Origin: Psammoneis japonica
Taxonomy: Eukaryota
Length of the DNA stretch: 32,536 nt
Direction of reading: 5' to 3'
Assembly: GCA_008632985.1 (NCBI GenBank)
Contig: QPGO01000047.1
Span: forward strand, 388,608 to 421,143
Shown here piece after piece: positions 1 through 21,733 of the stretch. Positions within the stretch are counted from its first letter, which is position 1. Every line of letters starts with the position of its first letter. Below the pieces are notes generated by a model. It worked only from the letters and a program-made list of their open reading frames with translations. It made no database searches and was not told the origin of the DNA. The translations under genes were made by a program, and so were the position numbers.

Positions 1-687
1 ATGGCGACAATGCACGCACTGTCCCTTTTTGAATTTGGACGTTGGCTCCTTCCAAGGCTTCTTGACAAGGTCGTCGCGATGGCCCGACAGATCGTCCTCG
101 GTTGATGGTAAAAACGATCCCGCCAAGTGCACACGAATGAGAACAGCCAGTGCCACTGCCAACATGAGACGCAAGAGAAATCCCATGAGGCTGCTGATGT
201 CAAAATTCTTGAAAGCCATGCCGATGTGAAACACGACAACCGCAGCAGTCAAATCGAAGCGCTTCAAGACGGCTGCTGCGCTCGCGAAGTCGAAACGCTT
301 GATGCATTCCTTGGACATGCCAACAACGAGTCCCGTGCACTTCAATGAGATGGTTTTGGACTTGATGGCAACGAAATGGAGTTGGCTCCAGATGGGAGAC
401 CCGATGATGGAGGACCAAATCGATTTGACAGTGACGTTCGGAAACCACTGCTGCTTGATGTGCAAAAAGTCCTCCGTGAGCCCCAACAACCCCTGGCACA
501 ATCCGTAGATAAACGTCGAGAATGTCGTGATAGAAACAACATCGAGATCTTGTAGTAAGGCGCAACAGCCGACCCAAAGAGCAAAACGAAGCCAATCGCT
601 CGCGCTCTTGCGTTGAATCACAACTGCAATCAAGTCACAGTGGCTGACATTGACAACGGCGTTCATAAAGAGGATAGAGGACATCAT
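1..687 (-). pseudogene. Mutated copy (5' part) of the 293-aa membrane/Tudor-like gene
   Basis: ATG at 687 corresponds to 5814 in copy B. The frame runs off the window. Many TpA->TG/CA missense changes, e.g. GQYVYYRH -> GQCVHCRH. Inactivation is inferred, no stop was seen. Confidence 0.7.
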
Positions 688-1105
688 GGTGATGATGGAG
701 ATGCAATGTCTTTGTTGCTTGTACCTTCAAAGAAATTGTGACAGCTTGAATCGATGCCTTTCGAAAGGCGCTCGGACAGTCGTCAGCACAAAGACACGTA
801 GAATGTACGAGGAATCCCGGCAAAAAGAAAGTCTTGGCACCGTTTCACCATATGGTATACTAATATCGGGCTGGATATATGTATTGGCCGAAACCGACCT
901 CTAACATCATGGTCACTACCGGTAAACATGTTCCGACATCATGGTGGTGTGTTGCGATCAATTCGGTTGCTTTTTTTCGACGATTTGAAAGATGATGTTT
1001 GTGTGAGGTCAAGAATGTTCATTTCCTACTTTGTCCTTCCTTCTGCCACGTAATTATGAATTTTCTTTCATTCAATTTCTTTATTTATTACTCTTTCTCT
1101 TCATA
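1..1105. repeat. Copy A of the triplicated ~2 kb unit (left-truncated by window; direct orientation relative to copy B)
   Basis: 1-~993 aligns near-identically to 5128-~6122 (offset 5127). Weaker similarity continues to ~1105. Confidence 0.95.
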
Positions 1106-1304
1106 CTGCCCGGTACTGTACTAACTGTACTGTCCTTACTGACGAGTTCGTCCACCTCTCTCCTCAAATCGCAGAGCGAGGCTCGAACCCGTCTAGCTAG
1201 TGGCCACAGATTGATACTCTTTTCGTTAACTATTGCAGTATCTATTAGCGCACTTGCATTATCTATTAGCTATGCATCTGTATTGAAGGGATGTAATGGT
1301 TGAC

Positions 1305-18968: not shown

Positions 18969-19502
18969 TTCAGTCGAGTCTCCAAAATGGAATACTTGAG
19001 TATTTGTGCCCATGATAGCCGGTCGTCAAAAAGTCCAAAGCGCGACCCTCAAGTGTCGCCCCATTTCAAAGTCATCGAGGTATGTTTTCCCGTGCGTCGC
19101 CAAACACGCGGAAACGGACTTTTCTCTCATCACTCATCACACAAACATCAACACGAGCATCAGCGATCAGCAACCATGGTTGTCACCGACGAACATGAGT
19201 ATCATCGACTTCGTGTTGATAGCATTGGTCTCATTGTTGTCCACACAAAAACTGATTCATAATGAAAACAAACGAAAATGTTCTCTGAACTCGCATTGTG
19301 TATTTTTATTCTCACATTCTCAGTGAGTGCACGCATCACCAACATCTCAGCACGGCATTTGCGAAAGTGACAGACTCTATTGATTAAATGTATTTTTTTG
19401 TTTTCTCAATTGCATTCTTGCAAGGAAGTGCAAACACTAACTTGCGTTTCTTTTTTTTGTCAAAGGTTGCTTTCGCCTGAATCATGTTGCCTATTAGCAG
19501 TA

Positions 19503-21733
19503 TGATACAGCCATGAGAAGCAGGGCACTTGCAGTATTATCGCAATGCCGCTCTGATGACAGCCGCACCTCATCGATTGATCGCCATCGTGGGGATTATG
19601 ATCAGTATGTATGAAGAAAGAGTTCATAAATAAAAGATCAACCAGCGAAGAAAGACATCGTCAAACAATTGCCTCTACTATATGAAAAATACGTGGCAGA
19701 GGAAAAGACATAATAGGAAATGTTGAACTTTCCTGACCCACACAACATCGATCAAAGCGTCAAAAAGCAACCGAATTGATCGCAACACACCACCATGATG
19801 TCGGAACATGTTTACCGGTAGTGACCATGATGTTAGAGGTCGGTTTCGGCCAATACATATATCCAGCCCGATATTAGTATACCGTATGGTGAAACGGTGC
19901 CAAGACTTTCTTTTTGCCGGGATTCCTCGTACATTCTACGTGTCTTTGTACTGACGACTGTCCGAGCGCCTTTCGAAAGGCATCGATTCAAGCTGTCACA
20001 ATTTCTTTGAAGGTACAAGCAACAAAGACATTGCATCTCCATCATCACCATGATGTCCTCTATCCTCTTTATGAACGCCGTGATCAATGTCAGCCACCAT
20101 GACTTGATTGCAGCTGTGATTCAACGCAAGAGCGCGAGCGATTGGCTTCGTTTTGCTCTTTGGGTCGGCATTGCGCCTTACTACAAGAACTCGATGTTGT
20201 TTCTATCACGATATTCTCAACGTTTATCTATGGATTGTACCAGGGGTTGTTGGGGCTCACGGAGGACTTTTTGCATGTCAAGCAGCAGTGGTTTCCGAAC
20301 GTCACCATCAAATCGATTTGGTCCTCCATCATCGGGTCTCCCATCTGGAGCAAACTCCATTTCGTTGCCATCAAGTCCAAAACCATCTTATTGAAGTGCA
20401 TGGGACTCGTTGTTGGCATGTCCAAGGAACGCATCAAGCGTGTCGACTTTGCGAGCGCAGCAGCCGTCTTGAAGCGCTTCGATTTGACTGCTGCGGTTGT
20501 CGTGTTTCACATCGGCATGGCTTTCAAGAATTTTGATGTCAGCAGCCTCATGGGATTTCTCTTGCGTCTCACATTGGCAGTGACTCTGGCTGTTCTCATT
20601 CGCATGCACTTGGCGGGATCGTTTTTACCATCAACCGAGGACGATCTGTCGGGCCATCGCGACGACCTTGTCAAGAAGCCTTGGAAGGAGAAGGGACAGT
20701 GCGTGTGTTGTCACCATTCAAACAAGACATGGAGAGCAAAGATTTTAAGGGTCCATTTTGACGATGACCTTGACCCGTTCTATGACGTGAAATTGGGCGA
20801 CGGACGCGAGAAGCAGACCACCGAGGACCACCTTACGGACCAGCTCGGCTCAGGTCACTTTCAGGTTTTTATTGACATCTTTGACGACGATCCGGATTGC
20901 AACACATTGTAAGGTGCTCAATGTGGGGAAGGGGATGTCGCCAGTGCAATCTTGTGACGATTGTTCCAACGAGATGTTCGACAGGGGAGGATTGCCGAGT
21001 GTCACATGTGGATGCGGTGTGACGAGTTTGCGTGTTGAATTCTTTGTTCAACTCGGGCTCTCTTTTTTCGAAAAAAAAAAGGCCTTTGCTGTCGAGATCA
21101 GAGGGCGACCATCTTCACACTTTTGAATGAGAGTTTGATTGATTGCATTGGGTCTTGAATTCAAGCTCGCATTGGACACACATTCAATTCGAGCTGATTC
21201 CGAAACATGCCATTGTTTCCGAACAGAGCATGTGAACGAGAACAAGAGATTCATGCGGCAATCAAACTCAAATTCGCACCGGTGTGAAGGTGGTGCCTTC
21301 TTTTTCGAAAGTGGAGGGGCGGCTGTTAAAAAATCGAGAAAGGAAAGTTGAAGTCGAGGAAACTGTTCAACACGAGAAACTCTTGCTCCCTCTGCAAGAG
21401 ACGCTTTGCCATTCTAATTCAGTTGGGCAATCTATTTTGGTTTCATTCAATCAAGATGAGCAGAGTCTTGTGCAATGAAAAGATAAACAAACAAGAAAAT
21501 TTAATCAACACTTCTCTGTCTTGTCTTGAACTAGATGAAAAGCACTGTTTGTCGTTCGTGTCACAGCCTGCACTCGCAATCGATCGATCCAAGGCTGAGG
21601 ACGTCACTGCACAACCGGCGGACTAGTGTGGCACCCTTTAGACTAGCTGCGGACTTGTCTCTTGTTCAGCACAGATTGACAGCAGCCACACTCTGCTGCC
21701 AGTCATCAAGAACAAATGCCAACAAACTGTGCA
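19503..21733. repeat. Copy C (inverted) of the triplicated unit. Core ~19762-21588
   Basis: Reverse-complement match to 4081-6445. Confidence 0.9.
20050..20912 (+). pseudogene. Disabled copy of the 293-aa membrane/Tudor-like gene
   Basis: 1-bp deletion near 20170 (frameshift), 18-bp deletion (PTSKFK lost) and YVYYR -> CVCCH. Confidence 0.9.

Follow-up and report, generated by a model that had tools for sequence, protein, structure and literature searches.

TpA-specific hypermutation as the likely origin of kilobase-sized TpA-poor domains in a contig of Psammoneis japonica

Introduction

When one copy of a repeat reads TA at sites where its sister copies read CA or TG, in which direction have the changes run, and what kind of process could have produced them? 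This question is raised by a stretch of 32,536 nucleotides from Psammoneis japonica (GenBank assembly GCA_008632985.1, contig QPGO01000047.1, positions 388,608 to 421,143 of the forward strand), referred to here as the window, in which a unit of ~2 kb is present three times (copies A, B and C), each time with an open reading frame (ORF). A preliminary description, made from the sequence alone, had read the differences between the copies as a hypermutation of TpA to TpG or CpA by an adenine mutator directed at repeats or heterochromatin and acting in genome defence, an inverse counterpart of fungal repeat-induced point mutation (RIP), and knew of no published account of such a system. In fungi, RIP changes C to T at CpA, mutates all copies of a duplication and is tied to the sexual cycle. 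In our study, we conclude that kilobase-sized domains of this genome are likely to have undergone TpA-specific A:T>G:C hypermutation in situ, and that the choice of targets would follow the state of the locus and not its homology to another copy.

Although the preliminary description knew of none, one published account of TpA hypermutation exists, the only one that our full-text literature searches retrieved. It is a preprint on the chlorarachniophyte Bigelowiella natans (Mettrop et al., bioRxiv 10.64898/2026.01.13.699255), whose main text reports that 231 of the 302 nuclear single-nucleotide mutations in mutation-accumulation lines fell in two integrated viral regions, that these regional mutations were A>G/T>C changes, all of them at TpA, and that the genome holds 124 clusters of 1-kb windows poor in TpA and rich in CpA and TpG; an ADAT2-like DNA adenine deaminase is proposed as the agent. 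The preprint also states the direction and the repeat targeting of RIP, and its main text mentions neither diatoms, nor stramenopiles, nor rules for the flanking bases.

Results

Differences between the three copies are concentrated at TA sites. Copy A (1-1052, minus strand) is truncated by the window start and its ORF (1-687) is open to the window edge, copy B (4204-6264, minus) has an intact ORF of 293 aa (4933-5814, minus), and the inverted copy C (19605-21666, plus) has an ORF disrupted by two deletions, of 1 bp and of 18 bp. Over positions 1-800 of copy A we counted 28 differences from B, 20 of which have TA in B against CA (12) or TG (8) in A, where a share of 0.075 would be expected (binomial p = 5e-17); the approximate counts given in the preliminary description, about 28 and about 20, were thus exact. 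The bias that it had also ascribed to copy C was recovered as well, with 36 TA-type cases (19 CA, 17 TG) among the 86 differences between C and B over B 4259-6102 (p = 4e-17); across both comparisons the expected share lies between 0.075 and 0.083. The 76 TA sites of B in this range read TA in C at 36 places, CA or TG at 36, and another state or a gap at 4, while the 42 TA sites common to the range of A and B read TA in A at 22 places and CA or TG at 20. In the aligned region, there is no case of a TA that is absent from B and present in A or C. Four sites show all three states, and their earlier identification held in every case: at 5138 and 5325 A has TG, B has TA and C has CA, and at 5259 and 5765 A has CA, B has TA and C has TG.

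These TA-type differences are unevenly distributed along the copies. In C they make up 32 of 71 differences in B 4259-5600 against 4 of 15 in B 5601-6102, and copy A has a single TA in its first 506 nucleotides and 21 in positions 501-1000. The remaining 39 of the 71 differences in the depleted part of C comprise 10 transversions and otherwise other transitions, and this non-TA divergence is similar inside the depleted part (39/1323, 2.9%) and outside it (11/501, 2.2%), which is to say that it stays at the background level. Since the non-TA divergence is alike in both parts while ~73% of the TAs inside the depleted part of C are gone, we estimate for TA sites a mutation rate no less than ~50 times that of the others. 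A>G changes at CpA are near background, with 8 CA>CG places in the whole C-B alignment, several of which are halves of CA/TG swaps. Above this background the changes are nearly confined to A>G/T>C at TpA, a feature shared with a process of the B. natans type. Separately, we observed adjacent double transitions that exchange CA and TG without a TA state in any copy (B 5290/5291, 5319/5320, 5556/5557 and 5586/5587, and the A/C equivalents); the best, though not a proven, reading of these swaps is that each of the three lineages resolved an older TA independently.

The loss of TpA is regional and is not limited to the repeat. We delimited four depleted domains on the basis of the observed/expected ratio (O/E) of TpA. 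D0 (1-506) lies inside copy A and has 1 TA, with a TpA O/E of 0.04 and a CpG O/E of 0.96; it probably extends past the window start. D1 (11849-15593) has 6 TA, a TpA O/E of 0.02, a CpG O/E of 0.17 and a CpA/TpG O/E of 1.8. D2 (20390-23960), with 29 TA, a TpA O/E of 0.13 and a CpG O/E of 0.83, comprises half of copy C, which is depleted from 20390 on, and 2.3 kb of unrelated flank; the TA-poor state passes without a break from C into this non-homologous DNA, up to ~23960. D3 (28722-32536, plus) has 39 TA, a TpA O/E of 0.20 and a CpG O/E of 0.90, and runs past the window end. The rest of the window (20.9 kb) has 902 TA, a TpA O/E of 0.61 and a CpG O/E of 0.96, and the CpA/TpG O/E is 1.1-1.8 in D0-D3 against 1.2 in this remainder. 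An equal loss of TpA in single-copy neutral DNA, on which the preliminary description would have foundered, was looked for in intergenic single-copy bins of 500 nt; their TpA O/E is 0.82-0.95, and neutral DNA is thus unaffected.

The affected sequences are of different kinds. D3 holds Copia-like retroelement ORFs on the plus strand (28647-31112 and 31257-32534, the latter with a gag-pre-integrase domain), D2 contains half of a gene copy together with a fragment of a coatomer-beta gene, and D1 is without a family match. The coatomer-beta (Adaptin_N) fragment (22986-23534, minus; PF01602, E = 3.8e-12; beta-COP chains, E = 1.5e-7) adjoins copy C and covers ~90 aa, corresponding to approximately residues 380-470 of solved beta-COP; the conserved WILGEY of beta-COP is WILGEH here. 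No other part of this gene was recovered from the window, and the piece is probably a pseudogene fragment. With Pfam at E values up to 0.1, the seven D1 ORFs and eight of the nine tested D2 ORFs had no match beyond chance level. D1 itself is complex, non-repetitive sequence in which almost all pyrimidine-purine (YpR) steps are CA or TG, and no long terminal repeats, terminal inverted repeats or long repeats were found bounding it.

The same depletion marks the reading frames. Tyrosine makes up 0-1.2% of the ORFs in depleted DNA against 1.3-6.1% in seven single-copy ORFs, and TAA/TAG stops occur at 1-3 per kb against 9 elsewhere, with TGA constant at ~20. As a result of the scarcity of TAA and TAG, many long overlapping ORFs appear on both strands (12300-15700 and 21700-24200), among which only the coatomer fragment has a family match. 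It was also observed that D1 lost TpA and CpG within identical limits, while D0, D2 and D3 keep their CpG (O/E 0.83-0.96). This double loss may reflect TpA editing and cytosine methylation on one locus, or an older domain; the deamination of 5-methylcytosine probably accounts for the CpG part of it.

The changed sites share a target context and show no preference for a strand. Neither TG nor CA clearly predominates as the outcome (TG:CA ratios of 16:16 for C and 8:12 for A), and runs tests for stretches of TG or of CA were not significant (p = 0.43 in C, p = 0.07 in A). The base 3' of the edited A has an influence: sites were changed at 24 of 50 places before T, 17 of 44 before C, 9 of 38 before A and 2 of 20 before G (chi-square p = 0.009, on counts that pool A and C, which are not fully independent). 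ADARs, by comparison, favour a 3' G, which is the lowest class here, and the runs on a single strand typical of ADAR are not seen either. Among the TAs that survive in D0-D3, 31/76 have the form Y-TA-R, an enrichment over the 156/905 found elsewhere (Fisher p = 5e-6), and only 4/76 have the form R-TA-Y, compared with 292/905 elsewhere. Two separate routes, the contexts of the substitutions and those of the survivors, thus lead to R-TA-Y as the preferred target and to Y-TA-R as the spared one. A further observation concerns five consecutive TAs retained in C (B 4934-5098, C 20746-20910), in the 3' part of the ORF that codes for its C-terminal domain, with heavy editing on both sides; four of them have one favourable flank and one has none, and their retention could be due to chance, context or residual selection.

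These results bear on the alternative that survives best, although we consider it improbable: that the composition is intrinsic or selected, either because foreign or mobile DNA arrived already poor in TA or because UpA is selected against in transcripts, with no mutator involved. The retroelement nature of D3, with its long open ORFs, fits this alternative, as does the lack of a sister copy of D1 or D2 within the window. However, copies A and C show real TA>CA/TG changes with respect to B in coding and non-coding sequence alike, with a boundary that falls inside a gene. In addition, a TpA O/E as low as 0.02 across 3.7 kb of complex sequence is much more extreme than the usual avoidance of UpA, and the survivors follow the same context rule as the substitutions.

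Direction of change

The three copies form a lattice of states, CG -> TG/CA -> TA, that can be read either way, and RIP indices alone give no direction. We consider that the direction TA -> CA/TG is decided by four elements taken together: an invariant tyrosine column, the background TpA level of copy B, the regional nature of the loss, and the cost of a CG ancestor. The first of these comes from the C-terminal domain of the repeat ORF (~55 aa), for which an exhaustive profile search recovered 159 protein relatives; our alignment contains 207 stretches from the 150 listed matches of these 159. In one of its columns tyrosine occupies 198 of 201 occupied positions, and the codon is TAT in B and TGT in A and C. 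The adjoining column (Y67, F36, L32, C10, R6), which corresponds to one of the three-state sites, reads TAT in B, CAT in A and TGT in C. As for the second, the TpA O/E of B (0.54-0.62) falls within the range of the single-copy ORFs (0.48-0.69), while A (0.35) and C (0.29) lie below it. Finally, if the three-state sites had started as CG, four changes per site would be required, yet ~60 CpGs are intact in every copy. The proposal that TA is ancestral, with independent A>G events on either strand, therefore holds for most of these sites; at a few of them, such as 5754, B seems to carry the derived state.

The opposite reading is a RIP-like cytosine mutation of B, which starts from an ancestor with CA or TG (or, where three states are seen, CG) and derives the TAs of B from C>T changes at CpA. 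The differences where B has TA do mirror RIP, and the G:C>A:T changes unique to B cluster at 5708-5928. We nevertheless give this reading very little probability: it would require the invariant tyrosine and the adjoining consensus tyrosine to have been recreated by chance, it fails to account for a B at background TpA next to an A and a C that are abnormally low, it has to bear the four changes per three-state site, and it leaves the TA-poor flank of C and the domains D1-D3 unexplained.

It is important to consider that several points weigh against TpA hypermutation as the explanation of the whole pattern. By hand count, parsimony on the best trees requires ~48 steps in one case and 51 in the other, and with numbers so close in both directions the three copies by themselves give no polarity; only about three repeat sites and one D2 site are polarised by an outside outgroup. 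Contigs of the public sequencing run X1, compared over the B stretch on the basis of 40 out of 396 variant rows, have C at 5754 in all 8 of the 8 contigs there and C at 5032 for 0.77 of the depth (8 contigs), which indicates that B carries some derived C>T and adds to the case for a RIP-like event. Up to about 3 of the 20 TA-type sites between A and B (5709, 5748 and 5754) may be gains in B; they lie where C otherwise retains its TAs. Furthermore, the TAs lost in C are a subset of those lost in A, with none lost in C alone among the shared sites, so that hot sites or shared ancestry are needed, and eight CA/TG swaps (for example, CA in A and B against TG in C) imply that the B lineage has lost a few TAs too. 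Regarding the domains, the limits of D0-D3 were set after seeing the data and their Poisson values are descriptive only, and D1-D3, which lack a sister copy within the window, could have been intrinsically poor in TA from their origin, notably D3 with its open ORFs.

Two other explanations were weighed. The first is an artefact of base calling or assembly, in which densely modified TpA would be called CA when one strand is read and TG when the other is, the real DNA being TA still. The idea comes from the misbehaviour of nanopore callers at modified motifs, and such an artefact would yield CA and TG in a 1:1 ratio as well as sharply bounded domains. The X1 contigs, which may share the sample, carry the states of copy C (4483/4485, 4670 and 5260) and the A/C state at 5754, and the mutations of B. 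natans were called from Illumina reads (bioRxiv 10.64898/2026.01.13.699255); for these reasons an artefact seems highly improbable to us. The second and least probable supposes that double-stranded RNA was edited in the manner of ADARs, reverse-transcribed and inserted in its edited form. We consider this highly improbable too, for although ADARs favour U before the edited A (bioRxiv 10.64898/2026.01.13.699255, Discussion) and D3 is a retroelement, a 3' G is the least used here, the depleted zone cuts a DNA-level duplicate and continues into its flank, both strands are equally affected without strand runs, and the changes in B. natans, as the preprint describes them, arise in place in a single-copy region.

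The repeat family and the neighbouring genes

The ORF of copy B consists of an N-terminal part without homologs and a C-terminal domain resembling chromo-barrel and Tudor domains (B 4933-5127). The consensus of the latter is ...GQ.VYY...A.IL.VH.DD.L.P.Y.I.L.DG.EKQT..HL, and its predicted model (mean pLDDT, the predicted local distance difference test, of 77) has five strands that would form a five-stranded beta-barrel fold like that of MRG/Tudor proteins. The top Foldseek matches to the model are the chromodomains of MRG701, MRG2 and MRG15 (E = 1.3e-3 to 1e-2; template modelling score by target 0.61-0.81), and one homolog of the repeat ORF has a weak Tudor-knot match. Pfam gave no match to the repeat ORF, word-indexed protein searches with it returned nothing at 161-513 aa or at 30-160 aa, a metagenome scan gave 144 pattern matches and zero relatives, and the literature search yielded no papers on DUF6824. 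Among the relatives of the domain (P0019-P0168) we observed frequent tandem copies, in proteins that also have ankyrin, RING or ArfGAP domains.

The repeat unit belongs to a large family, with 289 contigs of run X1 matching the B stretch at 80% identity or more. Many of these contigs differ from A, B and C alike (for example, at 5195, 5212 and 4874, at 100%), and hence they are distant paralogs; they were used only for 5754, 5032 and 5980, and the parts that they do not cover were left uninterpreted. It should be noted that a family consensus built from X1 would itself be biased if most copies were hypermutated.

The ORFs around the repeat copies correspond to common eukaryotic genes: an EamA transporter, a signal peptide peptidase, RRP36, a 2OG oxygenase and pieces of a DEAH helicase. 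The best named matches of the signal peptide peptidase are in the diatom Seminavis (36%) and then in the oomycete Saprolegnia (26%), and the search turned up no public protein close to identity. Genes in the window are intron-poor; those of B. natans are intron-rich. The pieces of the DEAH-type helicase (OB_NTP_bind and Helicase_C) stand in separate ORFs (17045-18498, minus), an arrangement that points to introns or frame breaks here, although introns are scarce in the rest of the region.

Discussion

Under TpA-specific hypermutation, each TA would become TG or CA with about equal probability, since TA is its own reverse complement and the base can be reached on either strand. R-TA-Y contexts would be preferred and Y-TA-R contexts spared. 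Copies A and C would lie partly inside the affected domains and would have lost there from about half to three quarters of their TAs, while copy B, between ordinary genes, would have kept the ancestral ones; D1, D2 and the Copia-like D3 would have been stripped by the same process. Copy B is as much repeated as the others and yet spared, which means that repetition alone does not trigger the process and that it is regional. The inverse-RIP proposal of the preliminary description thus keeps its opposite direction and its specificity for TpA and loses its induction by repetition; a mutator directed at repeats is not supported as proposed, as the depleted zone of C runs into non-homologous flank and three further domains have no second copy in the window. 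We infer that chromatin or the state of the locus decides which DNA is affected. The chemistry may be the deamination of adenine in DNA by an enzyme such as an ADAT2/TadA-like one, by analogy with the proposal made for B. natans; the oxidation of thymine at TpA, with T>C arising through mispairing of the 5-formyluracil type, may be an alternative on chemical grounds. The process as a whole would presumably serve as a defence against mobile or foreign DNA.

The window matches every sequence-level feature given for B. natans in the main text of the preprint (bioRxiv 10.64898/2026.01.13.699255). In both cases only A>G/T>C changes at TpA lead to TpG or CpA, in kilobase-sized domains poor in TpA and rich in CpA and TpG; transposon-type sequences seem to be among the targets, and not all candidate sequences are affected. 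The differences from that main text are also clear. What we describe is a footprint, whereas an observed mutation rate was reported there; the host is probably diatom-like, a stramenopile, and not a chlorarachniophyte; the targets here include a duplicated host-type gene, in part, and the coatomer-beta fragment; and we find the R-TA-Y preference, as well as one domain that is stripped of CpG too.

Other known systems resemble this one in part. As in fungal RIP, a transition hypermutation specific to a dinucleotide destroys mobile or duplicated sequences and may extend into the DNA next to them; in contrast to RIP, which creates TpA and mutates all copies of a duplication, TpA is lost here, B is spared, and A and C are affected only in part. 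The footprints of ADAR and APOBEC in animal retroelements and viruses are likewise clusters of context-dependent, deaminase-type transitions, but these enzymes act on RNA or on reverse-transcription intermediates, whereas the changes in the window occurred in place, symmetrically on both strands and with avoidance of a 3' G. Finally, the decay of CpG by deamination of 5-methylcytosine also turns a self-complementary YpR step into TpG or CpA in silenced DNA; here, however, the step is TpA, and D0, D2 and D3 retain their CpGs.

We regard the window as a new case, and probably a new lineage, of a process that was described only in 2026. Compared with the main text of the first report, it contributes a natural before-and-after comparison between B and the two other copies, a rule for the flanking bases with which the activity of any candidate enzyme must agree, domain limits that fall sharply within a gene, and a domain with joint loss of TpA and CpG. 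There is also a consequence for genome annotation, as depleted domains yield long false ORFs whose pseudo-proteins are poor in tyrosine and rich in cysteine and histidine. To find this footprint in a second organism, which seems to be only distantly related to the first, would mean that the process is widespread. More tentatively, and with somewhat less than even confidence, we suggest that TpA hypermutation is an old, locus- or chromatin-guided form of DNA base editing common to lineages of the SAR group (stramenopiles, alveolates and rhizarians), specifically rhizarians and stramenopiles, which follows the R-TA-Y rule and acts in place on mobile and foreign sequences as well as on some duplicated ones. 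If this is true, such a system would sometimes share its domains with cytosine methylation and spread into adjoining genes, and its removal of TAA and TAG stops would open new reading frames.

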